This document shows, one piece after another, positions 3,006 to 53,972 of a stretch of 64,000 nucleotides of DNA (position 1 is the first letter of the stretch; every line of letters begins with the position of its first letter). Source of the stretch: a virus; IMG/VR virus record IMGVR_UViG_3300045988_010396, positions 1-64,000 of that record, one strand, 5' to 3'. The notes below the pieces were generated by a model. The model did no database searches. It was not told where the DNA came from and saw only the letters and a list, made by a program, of their open reading frames with translations. The position numbers and the translations under genes are program-made.

Positions 3006-3682
3006 ATCATTGCATCTTTATATATCCATTTATATCCAGCTCTAGATTTTCTTTCCCCTCTACAGCACCTAATAATATCTCTATCAGATTTTATATTAAG
3101 ACTTCTTGCAGCTTCTTTTATAGAGGGAAACTCCCTTATAAACTCCCCTTCTAAACTAAGCTGAATAACTGGTTTAGCTAGAAGAATTTTTACTATAGCC
3201 ACTCCTTTGTCATATATTTCTTTTTTCATGGGTCTACCTTTCAAAGCAGAAGAAATCTTATTTTTATGACTCTCTGAGAGCACTCTACCCTTCCTTTGGT
3301 TAGACCACTTAACTCTAGTATTTTCAGTAGGAGTCCAACTACACCCTAAATGACCATCTCCTCCATTAGTTATGTTATAGGATATTCCTAGACCTTTATA
3401 ATGTCTAATTAACTCTATTTCTAATTTTTTAGCCTTATCCCCGTCTAAATTGGTGAATAATATTTCATGTTTTATATTATCCCATCCATATTTATTTATA
3501 GCTCTTTGAAAAAGAATACAGTTAGAATATCCAGTGCCATATCTCCATCTTCTATTTATTTCCTTTGAGGTAATACCTATATATACTTTACCAGATGGAG
3601 ATATATGTCTATAAACAGTCCATTTAGTGTTTTCTAATATATTCTTTGCTTCCAAGATGTTTGAATCCATATCTAAATTCAT
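3002..3682 (-). CDS. GIY-YIG homing endonuclease (I-TevI-like, with NUMOD3-type repeats)
   Basis: N-terminal VYRHISPSGKVYIGITS...NRRW (GIY-YIG core); C-terminal SESHKNKISSALKGR repeats; free-standing between structural genes. Confidence 0.75.
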   Translation of the reverse strand: MNLDMDSNILEAKNILENTKWTVYRHISPSGKVYIGITSKEINRRWRYGTGYSNCILFQRAINKYGWDNIKHEILFTNLDGDKAKKLEIELIRHYKGLGISYNITNGGDGHLGCSWTPTENTRVKWSNQRKGRVLSESHKNKISSALKGRPMKKEIYDKGVAIVKILLAKPVIQLSLEGEFIREFPSIKEAARSLNIKSDRDIIRCCRGERKSRAGYKWIYKDAMI

Positions 3683-4310
3683 TAGTTCTTGATAATAATT
3701 GATTCCAAGAGTTTGTTAATGCTTCCATTTCACTAACTGATGGAATTAAGAACTCGTTATTGCATTGTCCAGCAGCAAAAGCGTAAGATTGTTGAGTGTT
3801 CTGTAGCACAGCAGGACTAATCTTTCCCATATCAAACAGGATGGTAAACCATTCCTTCTTTATGTATAGCTCCAGAGTTTTTAGGAACACTGGATTATCT
3901 GGAAGCAAAGGTAATCCGCCATCATCAGTAGGGATAGCCTTGTAACTAAGCTCTATGTCTCCTGTCTTGAAGGAGGTAAATATTACAGAGCCTTGGATTT
4001 TGAAAGACAACTCACCCTTATCTTCTGAGTGAGTACCATTGAAGTTATCAGTCATAGCTCTCAAACATACACCATTCCTGGCTAATCTTACCTGGTTTAT
4101 AGCAATCAGGTCACAAGGTAAGATACCTCTAAAGTTATCTATACATATTGTAGTTACCTTATCTGCATAGATATTAGGTAATCCCATAGCAGCAAAGAAA
4201 TCTAAAGTATATTGTATAGCTGCTTCTGTTGACAAATCCTGTAGTAGTGGATGCCTTAGAAGTCTTGATAAAACCTCTTTTATAGATATATAATTAAATT
4301 CACTTACCAT
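3624..4310 (-). CDS. hypothetical virion protein
   Basis: 228-aa ORF in co-directional, tightly packed structural block; start overlaps neighbour. Confidence 0.5.
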   Translation of the reverse strand: MVSEFNYISIKEVLSRLLRHPLLQDLSTEAAIQYTLDFFAAMGLPNIYADKVTTICIDNFRGILPCDLIAINQVRLARNGVCLRAMTDNFNGTHSEDKGELSFKIQGSVIFTSFKTGDIELSYKAIPTDDGGLPLLPDNPVFLKTLELYIKKEWFTILFDMGKISPAVLQNTQQSYAFAAGQCNNEFLIPSVSEMEALTNSWNQLLSRTNEFRYGFKHLGSKEYIRKH

Positions 4311-4860
4311 ACCTATCTCTCCTTCCTATAAGAAGAGCATCTATGATGCCCTGTTTAATGTTATGCTTAAGTCTTAGTCTTAAGTCCTTATTGAAGACCA
4401 ACTCATAGAAAGACCTATTGTTGAAGTTAACATCTTCTTTGTTATAGAGCACCTTATATATCTCCTGTTCATCAAGTCTTAACAGAGTCTTGTCTTTATA
4501 TGCTTCCTCATCTTCATACCATAGCTTAAGAGTATTGTCCCAGTCTATAGGAAGGTTAGTCTTGACCTTACCATTCTCATCTATTCTGACTGACTTCTCA
4601 TACTTCCTTACTTCTATAGTACCCATTCTATGGGGTAGCTTAACCTCATTACCTGTCACTATATCATCAACAAGCAAGTTATTTATTTGCCTAATAATAG
4701 CAAAGTACTGTGACTCTGACAGTACATACTTCTTATCATCAGGCTTGTTCTTTCTATAGTATTTATAGCCAGAATATACACCAAGACTATTCCTTATCTT
4801 ATGCTCTCTAGGCATACTGGCTCTTCTTACTCTTTTCTTAAACTCTATAAGACTTTCCAT
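4300..4860 (-). CDS. hypothetical protein (basic, K/R-rich)
   Basis: 186-aa ORF, overlapping stop/start with neighbours. Confidence 0.5.
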   Translation of the reverse strand: MESLIEFKKRVRRASMPREHKIRNSLGVYSGYKYYRKNKPDDKKYVLSESQYFAIIRQINNLLVDDIVTGNEVKLPHRMGTIEVRKYEKSVRIDENGKVKTNLPIDWDNTLKLWYEDEEAYKDKTLLRLDEQEIYKVLYNKEDVNFNNRSFYELVFNKDLRLRLKHNIKQGIIDALLIGRRDRYGK

Positions 4861-5624
4861 TACTCAAGTTGTTTAGCAAGGTTTGACTTAGAGTTTCTCC
4901 TCACAAAGTCTGCCAATGTAGCAAATTCATCCTTAGCATTATTCTCATCATCTTCAGGAGTATAAGAAGCACTCCTTAATTCCTTCACTACCATTTGAAT
5001 TAACTCTGGAATTAAAGGCTCTTCTATAGGAAACTCCTTATCAAGTAAATCACAGGTATCATCACTATTATCACATGACAGCTCAGACATCTTTTCAGCA
5101 TCCTCAAAAATAGCAGAGAATCTTACCTTTTCTAAATATAGGTATTGAGGATTCCATGACTTGAAGTACAGATAACCATCAGGTGCTATAGAACAGTAGA
5201 TGATATTCTTCATCCACTTATTATAGCCTACATATCTCATCCTGTCTCTGCTTATATATGTTATCTCACCTTGATAGTAATCTATAGGATATACCCTAGG
5301 ATTGCCTACCATTAGAGTAACAGGTATTTTATCTTTACTCCTCAAGTATGAGCCTCCTTCACATACTTCACCACTAATAGCTGGAACCTCTATAAGGTCT
5401 AAGCATATAGTCTGATAGTTACTCTCTGGTATCTGTCTTCTTATATCTGAATATCTTTGCTTTAATAATAGTGCTCTATATTTGCCTAATAGAAAAGCAA
5501 TGTGCTCCTCTGTATAAGTGAAATCATCTGATGAGCCTTTTATCTCATCAAGAACCATGTATATAGCTTCTCTCCACTTCATTATATCTGTATATAAATA
5601 ATTAAACCTATTGCAAAGATACAA
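4860..5624 (-). CDS. hypothetical virion protein
   Basis: 254-aa ORF in structural block. Confidence 0.5.
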   Translation of the reverse strand: MYLCNRFNYLYTDIMKWREAIYMVLDEIKGSSDDFTYTEEHIAFLLGKYRALLLKQRYSDIRRQIPESNYQTICLDLIEVPAISGEVCEGGSYLRSKDKIPVTLMVGNPRVYPIDYYQGEITYISRDRMRYVGYNKWMKNIIYCSIAPDGYLYFKSWNPQYLYLEKVRFSAIFEDAEKMSELSCDNSDDTCDLLDKEFPIEEPLIPELIQMVVKELRSASYTPEDDENNAKDEFATLADFVRRNSKSNLAKQLE

Positions 5625-5660
5625 ATTATATTATATCCCCGCAATAGGTTAAATAGTTTA

Positions 5661-6005
5661 TTATTCATTTACTAACCTAAGTAGTTCATCCTCACTGAAT
5701 CTTAGTATATCATCCTCAGTTATTCTAGGAGTGACATCATTCAGTGCCTGAACTAATGAGGTATTTACTATAAATTCTGGATAAGGTATAAGACAAGTAG
5801 AGCCAAATAGACAGTATAGTATATTAGTTATTGCCTTATAATCTTCCTCACTAATGTATATACTTAAGGAACTTCTTAGTAATTCCTCTATGAACAATAG
5901 GACCAGCAGTTTGTTTACCTCTTTATACTCTTTGTACCCGAAGGTTGACAAAGCCTTAAAATAATTGCTGACCCCAGTATAAGCCATATTATCAAGTCCA
6001 TCCAT
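5661..6005 (-). CDS. hypothetical protein
   Basis: 114-aa ORF co-directional. Confidence 0.45.
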   Translation of the reverse strand: MDGLDNMAYTGVSNYFKALSTFGYKEYKEVNKLLVLLFIEELLRSSLSIYISEEDYKAITNILYCLFGSTCLIPYPEFIVNTSLVQALNDVTPRITEDDILRFSEDELLRLVNE

Positions 6006-6591
6006 GACATCTGCATCCAGTATTTATATTTTTACTTTTAACTCCCCTAAAGAACTTATCCCAATACTTGGTAGCTTGTGCATAGTGGCCTGTCCTTATG
6101 CTTAACTCAAGTGCCTTGAATCTGAGTAAGGCATCTATGAAGTTCTTTGGTATCTCACATTCATTATTTACCTCCTTTATATATCCAATCATAGACTGAT
6201 ATATAGGATATAAGTTACATACTACTCCAAGAGTAGTAGTATTATCCATACCACAAGGAGTATCAGGAGAAGGAGTACCCTTAACTATAACATATACAAA
6301 GAACAAAGTATCATTTATGACTACTCCCAAATCCTTACTATCCAGCTCAAGTCTTATTCTCTTAGGCTTAACATTATTGTCTATAGTCACCAGGGACTCT
6401 ACAGATGGAGTATCTACCTCATACTTATATATAGGCTTTGTACTTACACCATTCTCTATATAAGTATCTTGGGAATCTATAGCTACAGCATCAATATAGA
6501 CATCCTTATAATAATCTAAATTCTTAACAGAAGCATCTATTACAAGTTTACTACCCTCAAGAGAAACCCTTAGTTCATTAAAATCTACCAT
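5992..6591 (-). CDS. hypothetical virion protein
   Basis: 199-aa ORF co-directional. Confidence 0.5.
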   Translation of the reverse strand: MVDFNELRVSLEGSKLVIDASVKNLDYYKDVYIDAVAIDSQDTYIENGVSTKPIYKYEVDTPSVESLVTIDNNVKPKRIRLELDSKDLGVVINDTLFFVYVIVKGTPSPDTPCGMDNTTTLGVVCNLYPIYQSMIGYIKEVNNECEIPKNFIDALLRFKALELSIRTGHYAQATKYWDKFFRGVKSKNINTGCRCHGWT

Positions 6592-26405: not shown

Positions 26406-29400
26406 CTAACTAGTTGCCATATCTTTTACTAAATTTACTGTTTTCTTGAACTTCTTGTCATAGTTATTGGTGAAGAATGGGTCATTGCCTATATAATCCT
26501 TTGGAGTGGCATCTTTGTCCCTACTAGGATTACCTTGATATAGTACCATCTTCTCCTCTCTATATAACATAACCATACCTAATGCCCTGATTCTATCCAC
26601 ATTTATCTCAGGGTTGAATGCTATAAGTTCTTCTATCAAGGCTCTGTTCCTCAAGAAGAACAGGTTCTGGGTAGCTACTTCCCTCTCTACTCCATCTATA
26701 GTAGTAATCATAGTTACAGGTTTCATCAACCAATCCCTTATAAGACCATTGGCATAGTTGTTTATAGCTGCTGTAGCATTGACACCCTTCTGGTTACTAC
26801 CAAAGGAGCTGTACTTAATCATTTGCTTATCTCTCAGGTATTCAGGAGTATCAGCCAATAAGTGAGTACAAGTCATCTTGGCAAAGTAAGCATAGATTCC
26901 CTTCTTATTAGACTCATAGAGACACTTGGCATTATAGAATAGGCATAACAATCTCACTATCTCAAAGTTGTCCTCTGCAAATGATTGTCTACCTGTATAT
27001 TCAGCTACTATCTTGTCAGTCCATAAGTCCAATACAAATGTGGATGACAGTGATGATGACTCAGCCTGGTCATTGTCTACAGGGTCATGTCCTATTATAT
27101 ATCTAGTGTCAGGTACTTTACCACTCCTGTCTTTCTCAGGCAACTCAAATATCTCTATAGCTCCTGGTGTATCATTCTCTACTCCATACTTCCTGATAGG
27201 CTCATCACTTGTAGGTTTGAACTCTACTTCCCCACTCTTATTCATAACCAGCTTACCTATATATACATCATCAAATGAGTGCACATCAGTGTCAAGCTGC
27301 TGTAGTCTTTCAGTCAAAGCTGTAACTGGGAAGAATGCTGACTTTACCTTAATAATAGCCTCAGCAGGTGTAATAGGGTCTTCTGCTATAACTCTAAGAA
27401 CTGACTTAGGGTCAGCACTATACTTAGCCTTATACCTTTGCATAAGTATTTCTATCAGTGCTTTTACTACATCAGATACCCCATCCTTGTTATAGCACCC
27501 TGCTCTATTTATATATGATGGGAAGAAATAACCAAATGTAGGCTTACCTTGCTTAGGTTTGTCATATACATTCTCTACTGAGAGTATATTATAGGCTTCA
27601 GGATAATATAGCAAGGTCTTAGCTGAGCTAAAGTCTGATTCATCCTCGGCAGCAGTACCTACCAGATACATGGTGGCAAATGTATAGTCACCATCCTCCA
27701 CTGACTTTCTAGTAATGTCATACAAGGAAAGTAGTCCTTTGAATGAACCCATTTCCTCGAATAGAATCCAACCTCTCTTACCTCTCAGCTTCTCGCTGTC
27801 ATCCTTAGCTGATACTGCCAATACCTGATTTAGTGAACCTCTCTCAATACCATATTCATCCTTATAACCCATTTGCCATGACATCTCATTAGGAGAGTTC
27901 TTCAACATAAGGTGAGGGAAAGGAGTATGGGAGAAGCTAAAGTTAATTGCAGGCTTAAACTTAGATAGTGTACCATCCTTATTATCAGATAGATATTCTT
28001 TCTGATAAGCAGTCAACACTGTAATAACCCTTCTTTTGGATTCTTCTGACTCCCCCAAGATAAGATTATGTCCCATAATTGATGAGAGTGAATATGACTT
28101 GGCACAATTATGAGTAGCTACAAAATCTCCTATAAGGTAACAATTGTCTTTAGAGTCTACTGTGACACATTTAGCTTGTTGTTTACCTATATACTTTATA
28201 TCTATTATCTTGGTTCTTATTTCCTTATTTATAGTATATTCATTAGTTATTTTCTTAGCTCTCTTTTGCTTTCTTGGAAGATTAGAAATTATATCTCTAG
28301 TAAAGATAGTTAAAGAATAGCTTGATAAACATTCTTTATAGACACCATTAACTTTATATCTAGCCTTTTTTATAGTATAAGAGCAATTGTATCCAAGACT
28401 TCTACATATAAAGGCTATGTCTTCAATTAACTTTTTAGAACTTAATGATATTACATATCTATCACTTTTATCTAAAGTTCCATCACTATCCATTAAGCCT
28501 TTTAATAAGTTTAATCTTACTTCTCTTGAGTTATATTTGTATTCATCAGGTATAAACTTATCTTCAGACTTTTTCCAATATAGCCCATATTCTTTAAGAA
28601 TACTAGACCACCCAGGAATATCTATATGATAAGCATATTTACTATTCCATTTAATTAAGTTATAAGGTATATACTGCTTTTCAATATTTACATCTTCTTC
28701 TATTTGGGTATAATAACAGCATCTATGAACAAAGCATCCATCCCCTAATAGTAGTCCAAATGTATAAGGGTCTACTTTAGTTTCTTTATAAGGCATTTCT
28801 ATTCCTTCGTTTTTATGAATAGCGCACACGTACTCTATTCCTGAAGGATTTCTTTCAGATACTTTTTTGCCTCTCTTATACTCTTTTAGCAATTCCAAAG
28901 TAGTCATTATTTGACTGCCCATTCTATTATGAAAATCTATCTTCCATAGATGTTCATCAGATGCTAATATCTTTCTACCATCCCTAAGTGTAATTTCATA
29001 TACATCACATTCTTTATCATAAGGAATGTCTATAACCTTAGTTATATTACCATAAGTCCCATATAATTCATCACCTATTTGTATTTCTCCCCAAGTTCTC
29101 CATCCTTTAGGAGTAAATACCTTTTGACTATAAGGATGGGCGCCTCTCTTAGCCAGCTCAATGGCATGATGACCTTGCTCTCTGGCATTAAATAGATAAT
29201 AATATCTCCAGACATTACCCTCCTGTATGAAAGGGAATGATTCTACTCTGACAGCTTTCTTCTTGCCCTCAGTAATCTTATTGACCATCATAGGCTGATA
29301 GTTCAAGAACCAGTAGTTAAAACCTGAAATCCATGCACCATCTGAGGGCCTAATAAGACCCTCCCAACACCTTCTTCTCTCCTCATCCCAGAACTTCCTG

Positions 29401-29720
29401 AACTCTGAGTTAGGGTTACTATTGGGTTTTAGAAATGTGTAGCATCCATGCTTCTGATAATGCAATGCAGCTTGTCTAAAATAGTCAGCATCTTCAAGTA
29501 TAGGAGGATTAGTTATATCCACTATTGCAGCACCTCTTTCATCCCTAGGTAAATCCTTATAGCAAAGTCTATCTGGAGATATGAGATTCTTAATGAACTG
29601 TATATTAGTCAGACAATCCATAAGCTGCTCTGCTACCTCACTTGGCAAACTATCAAGCAACTCCTGTGTGACAGGAGTCTGATACCTGTTAGTCTGTATC
29701 AGCACCTTTATATTTTCCAT
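26406..29720 (-). CDS. terL: terminase large subunit interrupted by an intein (precursor 1104 aa)
   Basis: Largest ORF at the head of the structural operon. The internal ~340-aa segment has intein hallmarks. C-terminal nuclease-like region follows. Confidence 0.55.
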   Translation of the reverse strand: MENIKVLIQTNRYQTPVTQELLDSLPSEVAEQLMDCLTNIQFIKNLISPDRLCYKDLPRDERGAAIVDITNPPILEDADYFRQAALHYQKHGCYTFLKPNSNPNSEFRKFWDEERRRCWEGLIRPSDGAWISGFNYWFLNYQPMMVNKITEGKKKAVRVESFPFIQEGNVWRYYYLFNAREQGHHAIELAKRGAHPYSQKVFTPKGWRTWGEIQIGDELYGTYGNITKVIDIPYDKECDVYEITLRDGRKILASDEHLWKIDFHNRMGSQIMTTLELLKEYKRGKKVSERNPSGIEYVCAIHKNEGIEMPYKETKVDPYTFGLLLGDGCFVHRCCYYTQIEEDVNIEKQYIPYNLIKWNSKYAYHIDIPGWSSILKEYGLYWKKSEDKFIPDEYKYNSREVRLNLLKGLMDSDGTLDKSDRYVISLSSKKLIEDIAFICRSLGYNCSYTIKKARYKVNGVYKECLSSYSLTIFTRDIISNLPRKQKRAKKITNEYTINKEIRTKIIDIKYIGKQQAKCVTVDSKDNCYLIGDFVATHNCAKSYSLSSIMGHNLILGESEESKRRVITVLTAYQKEYLSDNKDGTLSKFKPAINFSFSHTPFPHLMLKNSPNEMSWQMGYKDEYGIERGSLNQVLAVSAKDDSEKLRGKRGWILFEEMGSFKGLLSLYDITRKSVEDGDYTFATMYLVGTAAEDESDFSSAKTLLYYPEAYNILSVENVYDKPKQGKPTFGYFFPSYINRAGCYNKDGVSDVVKALIEILMQRYKAKYSADPKSVLRVIAEDPITPAEAIIKVKSAFFPVTALTERLQQLDTDVHSFDDVYIGKLVMNKSGEVEFKPTSDEPIRKYGVENDTPGAIEIFELPEKDRSGKVPDTRYIIGHDPVDNDQAESSSLSSTFVLDLWTDKIVAEYTGRQSFAEDNFEIVRLLCLFYNAKCLYESNKKGIYAYFAKMTCTHLLADTPEYLRDKQMIKYSSFGSNQKGVNATAAINNYANGLIRDWLMKPVTMITTIDGVEREVATQNLFFLRNRALIEELIAFNPEINVDRIRALGMVMLYREEKMVLYQGNPSRDKDATPKDYIGNDPFFTNNYDKKFKKTVNLVKDMATS
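28107..29129 (-). mobile_element. intein with LAGLIDADG homing-endonuclease domain inside the terminase gene (approx. residues 198-538)
   Basis: Block B-like TLRDGRKILASDEHLW; two LAGLIDADG motifs (TFGLLLGDGCF, LLKGLMDSDGTL); C-terminal splice junction VATHN|C; AT-rich composition island 28100-28700. Confidence 0.5.
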
Positions 29721-35542: not shown

Positions 35543-35547
35543 ATTGC

Positions 35548-35618
35548 AGATAGAGTAAGACTCGAACTTACATCTAAGGGTTAACAGCCCCTTGTTCTAA
35601 CCTTTGAACTAAAGACCC
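35548..35618 (-). tRNA. tRNA-Asn(GTT)-like, possibly a pseudo-tRNA
   Basis: Good D-arm, anticodon arm agggg-cTGTTaa-ccctt and T-arm gtaag-TTCGAGT-cttac, but acceptor strands gggtctt/tctatct pair poorly. Confidence 0.4.
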
Positions 35619-41403: not shown

Positions 41404-41489
41404 ACTCCCTTAGCTCAGTTGGTTCCGCAAGGCTTGAGAGCATCGGACTTTTAATCCGAGGGTCATGGGTTCGAGTCCCATAGGGAGTA
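41404..41489 (+). tRNA. tRNA-Lys(TTT) with an 11-nt insertion in the D-loop (86 nt)
   Basis: Acceptor actccct/agggagt, anticodon arm tcgga-cTTTTaa-tccga, T-arm atggg-TTCGAGT-cccat; D-region gctcagttggtt-CCGCAAGGctt-gagagc carries an extra cc-GCAA-gg mini-hairpin. Confidence 0.55.
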
Positions 41490-41506
41490 CTATTCATTTC
41501 ATTCAA

Positions 41507-41826
41507 GGGGCTGTATTTGGTCTTGACTGGTGGCTACTTGGTATGAGGACATGCAGAGACTGATGGAGAGACATCAAAACTTTAGGTGGCAACAGAATTT
41601 CTGCACCTGTAGCTCTTGCTGCTTAAGCAATCTACTGAGTTAGTCACTGACTTGGAAACAGAATAGTGACAAGACAAGATTTCTTGCATAGATAAATGCA
41701 AGTGGTGGACTATGTTGACAATCCAGTCAACCCCAGCAGAGAACCAACTGCATAATAAAGTGGTAAGCATGTGTAATCCTTATATTGAGAGCTATTAGGA
41801 CAGGGGTTCGACTCCCCTCAGCTCCA
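41507..41826 (+). ncRNA. ssrA: tmRNA (ssrA-like), tag reading frame ending ...SAPVALAA-stop
   Basis: 5' end GGGGCUGUAUUUGGUCUUGAC matches the E. coli tmRNA 5' end GGGGCUGAUUCUGGAUUCGAC. 3' end ..GGUAAGCAUGUGUAAUCC..GGACAGGGGUUCGACUCCCCUCAGCUCCA matches ..CUAAGCAUGUAGUACC..GGACGCGGGUUCAACUCCCGCCAGCUCCA. Internal ORF ggt ggc aac aga att tct gca cct gta gct ctt gct gct taa (stop 41624..41626). Confidence 0.8.
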
Positions 41827-41902
41827 GAGGCACGTTGTTAGATACTTCCACGTAGTGTGCCTTGGGTTAAAAGCTAGATTCTAACAAAAAAAAAAAGATT
41901 AT

Positions 41903-42205
41903 ATGTTAATAACAGAAAGAGCAAAAAGGAAAATAAATACTTTATTAGATAGTACTAATGATTGTATAAACTATCCTAAAACTAATAAAGATGGTTATGG
42001 GGATATTCAAGAGATTGTGGAGGGTAAAAAGCTCCACATGTTAGCTCATAGAGTATCTTATCAGTTATATACAGGAGAAGACATATCACCTGATGATATA
42101 ATATGTCATAGATGTGATAATCCTGCTTGTATTAATCCTAGACATTTGTTCAGAGGCACTCACTCAGATAATATTAAAGATAAGGTTTGTACCCATTATT
42201 CATAA
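41903..42205 (+). CDS. HNH homing endonuclease (HNH_3 type)
   Basis: KDGYGDIQ...[11 protein letters not shown]...[24 protein letters not shown]. Confidence 0.6.
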
Positions 42206-42501
42206 GCGGTCGTAGCATAATTAGCGGTGACGCGGTAGTGGAATCCAATTACGACTATATTGTTTTCAAGAACTGGTGGTCATCAGGAAGATACTTTACA
42301 TGGACTAGAAGCAATGATATGTGGTGTGTTGGATGCTTCTACGGCACGGGCAAGGAGCTAATCGCTAAAGCCTACAAGGACAGCAAGGTGAGTGGTAGAG
42401 AGTATGAGAGAATAGTCAAATATGTAGAGCGGATTAAGAGAGACAGCAAGCCATCTTTGTGGCGGAGAATACTGTTTAATCTTAGCAAGCTCTGCAAATA
42501 G
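42187..42501 (+). CDS. hypothetical protein
   Basis: 104-aa ORF. Confidence 0.35.
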
Positions 42502-42805: not shown

Positions 42806-43005
42806 TTATTCTTATATTGTAGTGTACTATGTATTTCAAAGAAGATGAACCAATAAGAGTGCTTATGACAACACCTCTTCCTGACCCCTACTTATAAGGG
42901 CAGTTATTGGTACTAAAGTTAAATTTATGTTAAAGGTAGGTCATTTGTTTGGTAATATCAAACTTTTGACTTACCTTTGCGGTGTTCAATTAAACAACAG
43001 AGATT

Positions 43006-44429
43006 ATGTGTTCAAAAGTTAATCCTAACCTAAAGCCTGTACCTAAGTTTGAAAACACTCAACTGGCAGGTGGTTATGGTGCATTAGCTGCCAGGCAGTC
43101 CAATGTAGCATTGCTTAGAAGAGCAGTGCTGGCTAATCTCCTTTGAGAGGATGTAGCATATATGGATGGTGAGAGAGTAGCCAATGAAATACAGAGGTTA
43201 ATACCTCTGTGCCCTGCTGAGGATGTATATAATATAGCTCTTGAAGCTAGGTTAATGCAGAAACTGAGGCATACTCCATTGTTTATAGCAGTGGAAATGT
43301 GCAAGTATCCTGAACATAAGTTATTTGTTAAGGACTTGCTACCAAAGATAGTTACAAGAGCTGATATGCTCACTGACTTCTTGGCTATATATATATATAT
43401 TGGAAGGATGGCAAGCATCCTATCTGTAACCAAGCTAAGAAGGGTCTTGCTCTAGCCTTCCACAACTTCAATGAGTATAAGTTGGCTAAGTATGACAGAG
43501 ATGCTGCTATCAAGCTCAGGGATGTGATGTTCTTGGTACATGCAAAGCCTAGAAACCAGTATGAGCAGGAGTTGTTCAATAAGGTAGCTGAGAGAACTCT
43601 CACACCACCTGAGACATGGGAAGTCATGTTAAGTAGAGGTGATGACAAGAAGGCTACTTGGACTAAGCTCATTACAGAGGGTAAGATTGGAGGTCTGGCT
43701 ATGTTGAGAAACATAGCTAATATGCAGAAGGCCAATGTGGATAGAAGGACTATCCAAGATGGCCTTAAGACACTGAGAAGCTCAATGCTATTACCTCTTG
43801 ACTTCTGGAAGGCTGCTAGAATGAACCCAGCATTTGAGAGAGACATTGAGGATGCTATGATAGAGGCATATAAGAACTTACCTAAACTTCCTGGCAAGAC
43901 ACTATTTATAGTGGATGTATCAGGTTCTATGGGTTTTTTAACCTCTGGTAGCTCTCAGTTCAACAGGATGGACCAAGCTTGTGCTATGGCTATCTTGGCA
44001 GCTAATCAGTGTGAGGACTATGAGCTTGTAGCTACAGCAGGTAATGATGATTCTAAAATAAGTGCCTCAGAGTGGATTGAATATCCAAAGAGAGGTTTTG
44101 CTCTTGCTCCACAGATAATGGATACCAGGCATAGGATTAGTGGTGGAGGTATATTCACCAGGCAGTGCCTAGAGTGGTGTAAGGATAAGTTCAAAGACAA
44201 GAAGTTTGATAGAATTATCATATTCTCAGACTCTCAAGACTGTGACTATCCTGAGAAGAGAGTACCTAAACCATTTGGTACATATAACTATATTGTAGAT
44301 GTATCTGCTCATACAAGAGGAGTGAACTACAAGGGTGTATGGACTGCTGAGGTTTCAGGCTGGTCAGAACATTTCTTGACTTATATTGCAGCTCTTGAGG
44401 GATTGCAGAATAAGTTTGAGGAGCAATAA
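43006..44429 (+). pseudogene. rsr: Ro60/Rsr-like protein (TROVE + vWA/MIDAS), interrupted by an in-frame TGA (43144..43146) and a frame change at (TA)7 (43386..43399)
   Basis: Frame 1 from ATG 43006 reads MCSKVNPNLKPVPKFENTQLAGGYGALAARQSNVALLRRAVLANLL-TGA-EDVAYMDGERVANEIQRLI..., resembling the Ro60 N-terminus (RLHRFL.FGSEGGTYY...ALIRLI). After the TA tract the open frame becomes frame 0 (..GKHPICNQAKKGLALAFHNF..), continuing through GLAMLRNIANM to the MIDAS motif LFIVDVSGSMG and stop at 44429. Track ORFs 43162..43455 and 43482..44429 are fragments of this gene. Confidence 0.6.
43386..43399. repeat. (TA)7 dinucleotide repeat at the frame junction of the Ro60-like gene
   Basis: tatatatatatata read directly; loss of one TA unit would fuse the two reading frames. 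Confidence 0.9.
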
Positions 44430-44581
44430 ATAAAAAGAGCCTATAAGTGAAAGTCAGAGTTACTTCAATATTGGGATATTTTGACACTCTGACAAAGTGT
44501 TCTATAGGCTTTTAAGCTCTTCTATAGTTAGAAAGAGTTTCGAGACCCGATTGCCTTTGATGCATCTCGGGTCTTGCGATG

Positions 44582-44715
44582 GAGGAGTTAGCTCAGAGGT
44601 TAGAGCAGTTAAACAAGACACTCTACATACTGTTCTCTAGTAATAGTAGTGATTTGTAGAGATACTTCAAGCACTTTCATTGCACAGGTCATAGGTTCGA
44701 GTCCTATACTCCTCC
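44582..44715 (+). ncRNA. tRNA-like RNA 1 with ~60-nt internal insertion; candidate Y-RNA-like tRNA mimic
   Basis: Perfect acceptor gaggagt/actcctc, canonical D-arm gctc-agaggtta-gagc and T-arm atagg-TTCGAGT-cctat, but no consistent anticodon arm. Insertion carries a 7-bp hairpin ctctaca/tgtagag and motifs agtagtg and tacttcaag. Confidence 0.5.
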
Positions 44716-44779
44716 CAACTTTGTTGGATTTTGTGTGTTTTACCTCACTGGTATGTGAATATAGGTGAGGTTTTTACAA

Positions 44780-44918
44780 GGCGGAGTAGCTAAATGGTTA
44801 AAGCAACACCCTTACAGAATTTATCTGGTAAAGCAGTAGTGGGTTGTCAGGGTTACTTCAAGGTTATAGCATTAGTTTTGGGTGCTAAAGAATGTAAGTT
44901 CGAGTCTTACCTCCGCCA
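44780..44918 (+). ncRNA. tRNA-like RNA 2 with ~65-nt internal insertion; candidate Y-RNA-like tRNA mimic
   Basis: Acceptor ggcggag/ctccgcc, D-arm gcta-aatggtta-aagc, T-arm gtaag-TTCGAGT-cttac; internal motifs tctggtaaagcagtagtg and ttacttcaag shared with RNA 3. Confidence 0.5.
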
Positions 44919-45127
44919 CTTATTTACCTACCTCACCTAGCATAGTTATACAGGATAAGACCCATTATGATGGAGCACCGATGAAACTATCCTAGCCACG
45001 CTGGTATTGCTATTCAGTGAGTGAGAAAATGAATAGCCTCGAAGCATAGTGGAGATAACGTCAAGGAGTACCATCCTTAGCAGCTATGTAAAATTGGTTG
45101 ACAATCTGGAAAGACAGATAATAAAAT

Positions 45128-45255
45128 GGGGGAGTAGCTAAATTGGTTACTATACTCTTGCTGTTATTCTCTGGAAGCAGTAGTGTTAGCAAAGAGTTAC
45201 TTCAAGCATTCATCTGGTAAATGAAAGTATATTGGTTCGAGTCCAATCTCCCCCG
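45128..45255 (+). ncRNA. tRNA-like RNA 3 with ~55-nt internal insertion; candidate Y-RNA-like tRNA mimic
   Basis: Acceptor gggggag/ctccccc, T-arm attgg-TTCGAGT-ccaat; motifs tctggaagcagtagtg and ttacttcaag; possible anticodon-like arm ttcat-cTGGTaa-atgaa near the 3' side. Confidence 0.5.
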
Positions 45256-45457
45256 CAAAATAGAGGTTAGTGAATGTTACAGTTACTTCAATTATGATTA
45301 GTATATTGGTTTAACATTCAATCAAGAAAGGAGTAGATTTATTCACAACTTTTTTAACTCAACCCAACTGTGGCAGAGTTGTTCTACCTCTATTAAGAGG
45401 GCTATGGTAGTAATACTATAGTCCTCTTTCTTTTTGAAATTGTGTTAGCTACATATA

Positions 45458-45880: not shown

Positions 45881-46252
45881 ATGAGTGAAATCAAGGTGAG
45901 TGTCAGTATTACACTACAAGGTGGTGTAATGCTGACCCAAGCTGAGGCTGAACAGCTTGAGAAGAACAAAGTAGGCACTGGTTATGACCTGACTAGAGTC
46001 AAGGTTAAGGACAAGGAGGGTAATGCTGATGTCCTCAACGTGAGAACTAGGAAGTCCAGAACTGCCACACAGACCATAAGCATGTACAAAGAGGCTTATG
46101 AGTACATGACAAGTAAGGATAGCTGTCCTACCAGTATCAAGCAGTATGTATGGGCTAAGATGAAGCCAGTACAGAGATTGGAGGTACATCTTAACTTGGT
46201 ATGTAAGCACCTCGGGGGCATCTCCTACACCTATAAGGTATTTGATGATTGA
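45881..46252 (+). CDS. hypothetical protein
   Basis: 123-aa ORF. Confidence 0.4.
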   Translation: MSEIKVSVSITLQGGVMLTQAEAEQLEKNKVGTGYDLTRVKVKDKEGNADVLNVRTRKSRTATQTISMYKEAYEYMTSKDSCPTSIKQYVWAKMKPVQRLEVHLNLVCKHLGGISYTYKVFDD

Positions 46253-52337: not shown

Positions 52338-52343
52338 AAGCAA

Positions 52344-52874
52344 ATGGCAAAAGCATTGATTTTAGCTAAGACTGGGTTTGGTAAATCCAGTTCACTGGTT
52401 GGTGTACCCTCTGCTGGTATATTAGGCTTGGACCCTAAGGAGACTTATCTCCTTAGCTGTGTTAATAAGCCTCTGCCTATCAAGGGTGCATCTAAGATTT
52501 ATGTGCCTATACCTATGCAGGGTATTACTCCTGCTAACTTAGGTTCAGTCATAGGTAAGGGCAACAGGATTATCACCAAGGATGCCAAGATTGTAGCTGC
52601 TGCTATAGAGTTGCTAATCAATTCACCCTTCAAGAACATAGTAGTTGATGATATGAACTATCTATCGCAGGACTACTATATGAAGAATGCCATGAAAGGT
52701 GGTTGGGACACTCCTAAGCAGATAGGTTACAATATGGGTCTTATCTTTGACCAGATTGACAATGTGCCTGAGGATAAGAACATTATCTGTATGGCTCACT
52801 TTGAGACCTACAAGGATAAGAATGGTGACTCCATCTCTTACAAGTACAAATCAACTGGTAACATGGTAGCATAA
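52344..52874 (+). CDS. small P-loop ATPase (Sak4/RecA-like candidate)
   Basis: N-terminal Walker A LAKTGFGKSS. Confidence 0.4.
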   Translation: MAKALILAKTGFGKSSSLVGVPSAGILGLDPKETYLLSCVNKPLPIKGASKIYVPIPMQGITPANLGSVIGKGNRIITKDAKIVAAAIELLINSPFKNIVVDDMNYLSQDYYMKNAMKGGWDTPKQIGYNMGLIFDQIDNVPEDKNIICMAHFETYKDKNGDSISYKYKSTGNMVA

Positions 52875-53084
52875 CATCTGCCATTATCTATCTAATTGCT
52901 GGAACACCCTAAAGACAACTGAACTACAAAGTAATTGGTAACAATAAGCTTGAATGTTTGAAAATCAGTTGTATTCTTAGTGATGGAGAAATGGGCAATC
53001 AGCAGCCAAGGGACTCTACGAGTTCAAGGTTCATCGACTATCCCCTGTTGTGGGGGAGTACATTTATAAAGTAATCAATTATAT

Positions 53085-53699
53085 TTGGAAATGGTAGACA
53101 ATAGAGAAGTACACATTTATGCATTAAGACATCCTGATACCTTAGAAATAAGGTATGTCGGTAAAACAGTGAGAAAATTAAGTAGAAGGTTAGGGAATCA
53201 TATTGCAAATGCTAAAGGTAACCAGCACAATAAGCATTTAAGTAATTGGATTCTTAATATCTTGAAGGAAAATAAGAAACCTGTAATAGAACTCTTGGAA
53301 ACTTGTCAAAGTAATAACTGGCAAGAAAGAGAGCAATATTGGATTTCTCAATTTCCTAATCTGATAAATCTCACTGCTGGAGGAGATGGATGTGTAGGTT
53401 TTATTCATGATTCTAAAGCTATAGAAAAGATTAGACAATCTAAATTTGGTACTAAACATTCTGTAGAATTTAAGGAAGCTATGAGTAAAAGGCTTAAAGG
53501 TGTGCCTCTTAGTGAAGAACATAAAAGTAAAATAGGTTTAGCTAATAAGGGAAGGAAGGCTTCGGAAACTGCAAGAAAGAGGCTATCAGAATCCCACAAA
53601 GGTATTACTCAGAGTGAGGAATCCAAAAGAAAAAGAAGTGAATCTATTAAACTTTGGTGGACTAAGAGAAAGTCTATTGAAGATATAGTCAAATCTTAA
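53085..53699 (+). CDS. GIY-YIG homing endonuclease with NUMOD3 repeats
   Basis: HIYALRHPDTLEIRYVGKT...R core; repeats LSEEHKSKIGLANKG, LSESHKGITQSEESKRKRSE. Confidence 0.7.
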   Translation: MEMVDNREVHIYALRHPDTLEIRYVGKTVRKLSRRLGNHIANAKGNQHNKHLSNWILNILKENKKPVIELLETCQSNNWQEREQYWISQFPNLINLTAGGDGCVGFIHDSKAIEKIRQSKFGTKHSVEFKEAMSKRLKGVPLSEEHKSKIGLANKGRKASETARKRLSESHKGITQSEESKRKRSESIKLWWTKRKSIEDIVKS

Positions 53700-53972
53700 T
53701 GGAAACATTAAGGAGGTATAGTAGAGTGATTAACTATAATAGTTATACCTCATTAAATGGGATGAATACATCACACCTGAAGGTAAGTTTGAGACTGTAC
53801 TCTTTGGAAAGATGTCATGGGATGATACAGCTAAGGTAGCTGTAAGGCAGTTTGTAACCAATAATGATGGTGAATATCCTGCCAAAAGTCCTGTTGGTAT
53901 GTTTGAATCCCTGTATATTCCTAATGACTTGGGTATAGTAGCTCAGAAGATGCAGGAGTATTATGAGGGAGA

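Follow-up and report, generated by a model that had tools for sequence, protein, structure and literature searches.

Evidence for recent inactivation of a Ro60/TROVE-like early gene beside a conserved tRNA-like RNA array in a crAss-like phage

The YrlA RNAs, tRNA-like members of the Y RNAs, have a permuted tRNA arrangement. Such RNAs are encoded beside Ro60 genes in both bacteria and phages (PMC4201824), and a phage Ro60, that of Thermus phage phiLo, has been solved as structures 9KOP and 9L5Y (PMC12135203). In the crAss-like phage crAss001, the block containing gp96 belongs to the early genes, which are transcribed within 10 min of infection (PMC8375218). Here we describe the ortholog of gp96 in positions 1 to 64,000 of the IMG/VR record IMGVR_UViG_3300045988_010396, a stretch of 64,000 nt that we refer to as the window. 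This Ro60/TROVE-like early gene, located at 43006-44429, carries an in-frame stop codon and a frameshift, and is very probably a real pseudogene that was inactivated recently by ordinary gene decay.

The window belongs to a crAss-like phage of the Steigviridae, subfamily Asinivirinae. By BLASTn against the GenBank phages, the region 42900-44500 matched only crAss-like Steigviridae/Asinivirinae (crAss001, the PhiCrAssBcn isolates, cr112_1, and cr106_1), with 71-75% identity over at least 93% of the query, and every matching region is annotated as a "TROVE domain-containing protein". For the wider region no closely related record was found among the GenBank phages, so that the window represents a new species-level relative. 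Once the two lesions are repaired, 43006-44429 shares ~74% nucleotide and ~79% amino acid identity with crAss001 gp96. The gene and the features discussed below are the following:

43006-44429, plus strand: disrupted TROVE/Ro60-like and vWA gene, ortholog of crAss001 gp96 by homology, a probable pseudogene in three open reading frame (ORF) fragments.
43040, plus strand: private substitution C>T (GCA>GTA, Ala12Val), from the comparison with relatives.
43144-43146, plus strand: premature TGA in place of TGG (Trp47), created by a G>A transition at 43146, from the ortholog alignment.
43386-43400, plus strand: (TA)7T microsatellite at which frame 1 passes to frame 3 (codon 131), from the ortholog alignment.
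43006-43146, plus strand: fragment 1, 46 codons ending at the premature TGA, from ORF reading.
43162-43455, plus strand: fragment 2, a 97-codon ORF from Met53 that crosses the TA tract and terminates at TAG, its last 22 residues being an out-of-frame tail.
43377-44429, plus strand: fragment 3, an open frame-3 stretch for the C-terminal two-thirds, with the rest of the HEAT ring and the putative vWA domain bearing DVSGSM.

The first-pass annotation had called the gene Ro60-like, and this label is correct according to Pfam, profile, and structure-model matches. The repaired ORF scored 41.6 bits against the Pfam TROVE family (PF05731; cut-off 23), and the same family is precomputed for all of the listed homologs (the best 120 of 1,570 hits). 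A four-sequence profile matched the phiLo Ro60 structures over residues 24-465 (E=2.8e-16). An AlphaFold model (pLDDT 76.5) was built on an intact ortholog that is 95% identical to the repaired window protein, and in Foldseek its top 13 matches were all Ro60 proteins from phage, Xenopus, Deinococcus, and human (E-values from 8e-17 to 8e-9), with TM-scores of just 0.4-0.46. In the C-terminal part, DVSGSM, which is the MIDAS DxSxS motif, is invariant in the aligned homologs; the Pfam models vWA_Ro60 (19.2 vs a cut-off of 27.7) and VWA_2 (18.8 vs a cut-off of 27) both stayed below threshold.

Both lesions were found where the first-pass annotation had placed them: the TGA at 43144-43146 lies in frame 1 as read from ATG 43006, and the frame changes at the (TA)7 tract, with the downstream frame open across the junction. 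The residue that had been expected at the TGA, Ser/Thr/Gly, was mistaken, as true orthologs have an invariant Trp within the block LLWEDVAY. Codon 47 is TGG in crAss001, cr112_1, cr106_1, and the seven closest IMG/VR relatives (87-98% amino acid identity), and also in the other aligned loci, the exceptions being TGA in L067 and TGT in L063, a contig of low coverage. No residue other than Trp occurs at this position in the 23 to 26 homologs that were aligned. Beyond the TGA, frame 1 continues to a TAG at 43453-43455, while the remaining homology is borne by frame 3, which is open from 43377 to a TAA at 44427-44429 and in which the called gene starts at TTG 43482 (315 amino acids).

The junction itself reads GGC (43383-43385), TATATATATATATAT (43386-43400), and TGG (43401-43403). 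In the seven closest IMG/VR relatives it reads GCT ATA TAT TGG, and in crAss001, cr112_1, and cr106_1 it reads GCA TTA TAT TGG (A-L-Y-W). Compared with the closest relatives, the tract has gained 8 nt, from TATATAT, i.e., (TA)3T, to (TA)7T. It is the sole dinucleotide run of five or more units within the 64 kb, and of 300 sequences simulated with a first-order Markov model, only 2 reached (TA)7. Pattern scans of IMG/VR and of the JGI metagenomes showed no other expanded tract at the junction site. A group I intron at the frame junction was considered and discarded, as the insertion is just 8 nt and the genuine intron-split genes of the window, those for the terminase and a gp84-like ATPase, look quite different.

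The comparison with orthologs, which the first-pass annotation had called for, showed them to be overwhelmingly intact, with other independent knock-outs in relatives. A search for related loci returned 54 IMG/VR loci; of 61 related loci, 55 have a single uninterrupted full-length ORF, and a length of 469-473 amino acids is shared by almost all of the best 120 of the 1,570 database homologs. When every crAss001 ORF was compared with the window by tblastn, ~14,500 residues were aligned, and the TGA at 43144-43146 was the one in-frame stop found within a genuine gene, the other stops falling in antisense shadow ORFs. Apart from the TROVE gene, frame changes were found only in the intron-split genes for the terminase and the gp84-like ATPase. 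Thus, of the options raised for this locus, pseudogenisation is the one that is supported, as the gene has two independent lesions and the remainder of the ~14,500 aligned codons has none. Unlike an uninterrupted, functional Ro60/TROVE member, the window gene has an in-frame TGA (43144) and an 8-nt frameshift (43386-43400). These two disabling mutations are absent from the intact orthologs, are reproducible across assemblies, and occur in a genome in which TGA functions as a stop codon, as is characteristic of a unitary pseudogene. The restriction of both lesions to one 1.4-kb gene, with the other aligned coding sequence clean, fits relaxed selection and not random error.

Reproducibility also bears on assembly error, another option of the first-pass annotation, in which the real phage would have TGG and an in-frame TA tract. 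This was made unlikely by the finding of the identical allele, TGA plus (TA)7, in three independently built assemblies. In exact-protein look-ups, the 46-, 97-, and 315-amino acid products were all found in the ENA (ERZ28596678, LOOM17-1_SAMN06328475 scaffold_47, 103,245 nt), Logan (SRR5275468, a 14,878-nt contig), and JGI/IMG (a 101,394-nt contig) assemblies. The exact 97-amino acid product is encoded on six contigs from these three sources and, since it includes the out-of-frame tail, it requires exactly (TA)7. The TGA and (TA)7 are both present in L065 and in the ENA scaffold L064, whose identities to the window are 100% (4,570 nt) and 99.96% (5,457 nt), respectively. The only differences between the window and L064 are in two intergenic A-runs, at 41886 and 45469, with A11 in the window and A10 in L064, which are either homopolymer polymorphisms or assembly noise. 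Same-strain contigs were not found (0 hits) in IMG/VR and the JGI metagenomes by exact and gapped patterns across both lesions. No publication was found for the SRA and BioSample identifiers in a literature search. An artefact would be favoured by the fact that the case is built on assemblies and not on reads, by the A11/A10 lengths, which show that small length calls vary between assemblies, and by the obvious errors in low-coverage contigs of relatives, such as L063 at 2.6x. A dinucleotide gain of 8 nt together with a substitution would, however, be an atypical consensus error, both would have had to hit the same 1.4-kb gene and spare the ~43 kb of coding sequence aligned elsewhere, and the TGA was seen independently in another run (SRR31227379). 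We therefore consider a sequencing or assembly artefact highly improbable.

Under programmed recoding, UGA would be decoded as Trp by code-4-like suppression and the ribosome would shift by +2 or -1 on (UA)7, so that full-length Ro60 would be made. The TGA falls exactly on a Trp codon, a 2-nt slip on a dinucleotide repeat re-pairs perfectly and is the very shift required, and reassignment of TGA to Trp and of TAG to Gln has been reported for some Steigviridae (PMC10136315). The position of the TGA is nevertheless not evidence for recoding, because few single transitions produce a stop and TGG>TGA is among them, so that a Trp position is expected by chance. Genome-wide recoding, already judged unlikely in the first-pass annotation, was contradicted by the genes of the window, as 15 of 42 genes terminate with a TGA exactly at the end point of their crAss001 ortholog. 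These include the gene for the portal and the gp94-like gene (45881-46252), the latter being the next downstream gene with a crAss001 ortholog. A single in-frame stop at a conserved sense position in ~14,500 aligned residues, with TGA a terminator, does not correspond to code 4 or code 15.

Among the tRNAs detected by ARAGORN and Rfam in the 64-kb window, with ~35-40 kb of the genome lying outside it, there was no suppressor tRNA with anticodon UCA or CUA. Two tRNAs were considered as suppressors and rejected: an additional Rfam tRNA at 35547-35618 reads as tRNA-Asn (GTT), and an odd tRNA at 41404-41490, a candidate frameshift suppressor, has an ordinary 7-nt anticodon loop (CTTTTAA), its oddity being an insert in the D-loop. 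Programmed readthrough or frameshifting, also proposed for the locus, did not hold either, since neither lesion is conserved as a feature of the orthologs, which are all single-frame; the tract is unique to the window lineage, and L067 shares only the TGA. Two bespoke recoding signals would be needed that no ortholog possesses as a pair. Moreover, the reported reassignment is mostly in late genes (PMC10136315), whereas gp96 is early in crAss001 (PMC8375218). Programmed recoding is thus scarcely conceivable.

The tract could instead act as a contingency switch, its slippage turning expression on and off, and (TA)7 is indeed long enough for elevated slippage and the only such tract in the 64 kb. 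The lengths that are in frame at the junction are (TA)3, as in the relatives, and (TA)6, and (TA)9 likewise restores the frame. Phase-variable expression would nonetheless be defeated by the upstream TGA, which blocks the "ON" state and prevents a complete product at any tract length. The tract length is also uniform, as the six contigs with the allele all have exactly (TA)7, expansion at this site was seen in no other relative, and relatives inactivate the gene by other, irreversible routes. For these reasons phase variation, likewise suggested in the first-pass annotation, is very improbable.

The proposed history of the pseudogene has two steps. A G>A transition would first have converted the invariant Trp47 codon to TGA; later, replication slippage would have expanded the ancestral TATATAT to (TA)7T, adding 8 nt and shifting the frame at codon 131. 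The stop probably arose before the TA expansion. This order is suggested by a sister strain, L067 (a Logan contig from SRR31227379), which has the TGA at codon 47 together with the ancestral (TA)3 and whose frame is otherwise open, over 420 codons from Met53. It is also suggested by the slippage path, because 2-nt steps from (TA)3 to (TA)7 pass through out-of-frame lengths and would be easiest once selection was gone. Compared with about 50 relatives, the gene has only two private substitutions, Ala12Val and Trp47stop, both non-synonymous, and so the inactivation appears to be recent.

Translation of such a gene would end after 46 codons, and any restart at Met53 would end after 97 codons. In the ortholog model of the Ro60 fold, Trp47 closes the helix 33-46 and the frameshift lies at the end of the helix 120-129, and thus both lesions truncate the HEAT-repeat ring near its start. 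No full-length product would be expected, and the ring-shaped RNA-binding protein could not form, because both lesions are in N-terminal helices of this ring. The 315-amino acid C-terminal fragment from TTG 43482, which lacks the N-terminal third of the ring, would be unlikely to act as Ro60. The fragments might still function as a split or truncated protein, for example the 315-amino acid piece with its vWA/MIDAS part, or the L067 protein restarted at Met53. The latter is situated only six codons past the TGA (43162) and is preceded by GAGAGGA, and the frame-3 ORF is intact over 351 codons, just as L067 retains a 420-codon ORF past the TGA. However, Ro60 function needs a closed HEAT-repeat ring, to which the N-terminal helices contribute in the model as well as in the solved homologs; the whole ORF is deleted in other relatives, which argues for dispensability over neo-function; and the event is too recent for the intactness of an ORF to carry weight. 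Functional fragments are therefore improbable.

Several points weigh against the locus being a decayed gene with this history. The three assemblies may share one sequencing run, so that their agreement excludes an assembler error and not a library-level artefact, which is itself very unlikely. The window and L067 share the TGA, yet their local haplotypes differ 9 and 15 nt downstream, and the shared stop is either a mutation inherited from an ancestor with recombination around it or a recurrent hit, a choice on which the TGA-first order rests. Two private substitutions are too few for dN/dS to demonstrate relaxed selection. Some putative activity of the 315-amino acid C-terminal fragment is conceivable, and low-level natural readthrough of UGA by tRNA-Trp, which would restore the wild-type residue, is possible, with the frameshift still following.

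Inactivation of this gene is not confined to the window, and the following disrupted alleles were found in related phages:

L060 (SRR23937433; 99.8% identical to the window just upstream), 4710-6122: Gln63 CAG>TAG.
L069-L075 (eight Logan contigs; SRR268446xx series and SRR7619049), junction at ~2616/2617: 1,361-nt deletion corresponding to window 43122-44482, with 41 codons left.
L076 (SRR31228102, a 104-kb contig), 3500-3760: the region corresponding to ~43200-44424 replaced by ~55 nt of unrelated sequence.
L044, 3001-3220: 101-nt deletion.
L029: one additional G in a G-run, possibly a sequencing error.
L067, 1705-3123: Trp47 to TGA, on a local haplotype different from that of the window.

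Three other loci with truncated database proteins were examined as disrupted alleles and not counted: L061 (P0095) has a scaffold N-gap, L063 (P0064) is a 2.6x-coverage contig with clustered errors, and L062 (P0077) has its 5' end replaced. In the unbiased IMG/VR set the disruption rate was 2/57 for the TROVE gene vs 0-1/50 for its neighbours, a difference that is not significant in a set that is biased against full deletions, which it cannot detect. The gene appears to be dispensable and recurrently lost, as several independent losses have occurred in related phages that kept the tRNA-like RNAs downstream; positive selection is not claimed. Loss could have been selected, for instance as an escape from a Bacteroides defence that senses the protein, with the downstream RNAs then acting alone, perhaps with a host factor. 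Such a reading draws on the presence of at least five independent knock-out alleles in one small clade, on Trp47 having become TGA on two different local haplotypes, and on two independent deletions in which most of the ORF is gone and the tRNA-like RNAs are spared (one of them clips just the first stand-alone motif hairpin). Selection for loss is nevertheless rather unlikely.

The TROVE locus is a hotspot for the insertion of mobile endonucleases and for mosaic recombination. In L060, an additional ~1.6 kb with an HNH_3 endonuclease gene precedes the TROVE gene (window 42184-42363 vs L060 2421-4068), and in L067 and cr112_1 an extra gene is fused to, or overlaps, the 3' end of the TROVE ORF.

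The RNAs that persist where the protein gene is lost form an array immediately downstream of it:

44450-45300, plus strand: five-hairpin array with the motif G(T/A)TACTTCAA, from motif search and folding.
44581-44717, 44781-44921, and 45128-45266, plus strand: elements E1, E2, and E3, respectively, motif hairpins within tRNA-like scaffolds.
Near 44450-44495 and 45270-45320: stand-alone motif hairpins.

The spacer that separates the gene from the next ORF is ~1 kb long and contains all four copies of the motif GTTACTTCAA found in the window (0.11 expected), and a fifth variant, ATACTTCAA, lies within E1. At least 54 related loci have the array conserved behind the TROVE gene. Orthologs of E1 were present in 54 related loci, including the unannotated spacer between gp96 and gp95 of crAss001 (L001), where the counterparts of the array are at 5794-5940 and 6076-6193. 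For 40 distinct sequences, RNAalifold gave 24 pairs, 13 of which show compensatory double changes; no pairs were broken in the acceptor and T stems, and the D arm is invariant. Rfam sees the elements of the array only as tRNA with a 74-nt insert, and its Y RNA models gave no match to them. The array is retained in the alleles from which the protein gene has been deleted. Because YrlA RNAs adjoin Ro60 genes in bacteria and phages, the array RNAs are plausible Y-RNA-like partners of the Ro60-like protein, putatively with an un-permuted tRNA topology.

For annotation, these results mean that the locus should be recorded as a pseudogene of a gp96-type TROVE/Ro60 gene, neither as three hypothetical proteins, as in the ENA, JGI, and Logan gene calls, nor as a case of recoding. 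They also indicate that Asinivirinae crAss-like phages can do without their Ro60-like early gene in nature and lose it repeatedly, while the structured tRNA-like RNAs persist. The lost alleles are natural knock-outs with which to ask what phage Ro60 ribonucleoproteins do. In addition, an unannotated RNA family supported by covariation is flagged in the well-studied phage crAss001. The pseudogene itself is an ordinary feature in a known gene family, and the natural loss of Ro60 together with the retention of an undescribed tRNA-like array is the more interesting lead.

Other features of the window include the tRNA at 41404-41490, which has a D-loop insert of ~15 nt and the loop CTTTTAA, is located directly upstream of the phage tmRNA, and was assigned no anticodon by ARAGORN; its crAss001 homolog is annotated as tRNA-OTHER. 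The tmRNA itself is at 41507-41829 (RF00023, 83 bits), and the tag predicted by ARAGORN is ASGGLC*. The gene of the gp84-like ATP/GTP-binding protein (52338-53964) is interrupted by a group I intron (52774-53155; RF00028, 51 bits), and the large terminase gene (26460-29714, minus strand) is split by an insert of ~1 kb at 28122-29126, presumably another intron or a homing-endonuclease element.

Among the described systems, the crAss-like phages with recoded stop codons (PMC10136315) resemble the window in that a Steigviridae-type phage has TGA where Trp is expected; the window differs in that only one site, within one early gene, is affected, TGA serves as a true terminator, and the window encodes no suppressor tRNA. 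With the simple-sequence-repeat contingency loci of bacteria it shares a dinucleotide repeat within a gene whose length sets the frame; here, in contrast, no length polymorphism was observed among the assemblies, the tract is absent from the relatives, and a second, irreversible lesion lies upstream. To the Ro60 of phiLo, the bacterial Rsr, and the animal Ro60, the window gene product is homologous over the full length, with a HEAT-repeat ring and a putative vWA domain with DxSxS, at ~22% identity and with the window gene very probably dead. In those systems, as in the window, candidate partner RNAs are encoded beside the gene. The predicted topology of the window RNAs is that of a normal tRNA, with an acceptor stem that is closed by the 5' and 3' ends and the motif hairpin inserted, unlike the permuted YrlA RNAs of Ro60 systems. 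The closest counterparts are crAss001 gp96 (AXQ62739.1) and its Kehishuvirus/Mahstovirus orthologs, which are intact proteins of 469-474 amino acids, whereas the window copy has Trp47 changed to TGA and the +8-nt frameshift. The window gene occupies the equivalent genomic position, in the early-gene block, and, as at the gp96-type loci, it is followed by an unannotated RNA-rich spacer of ~0.9-1 kb.

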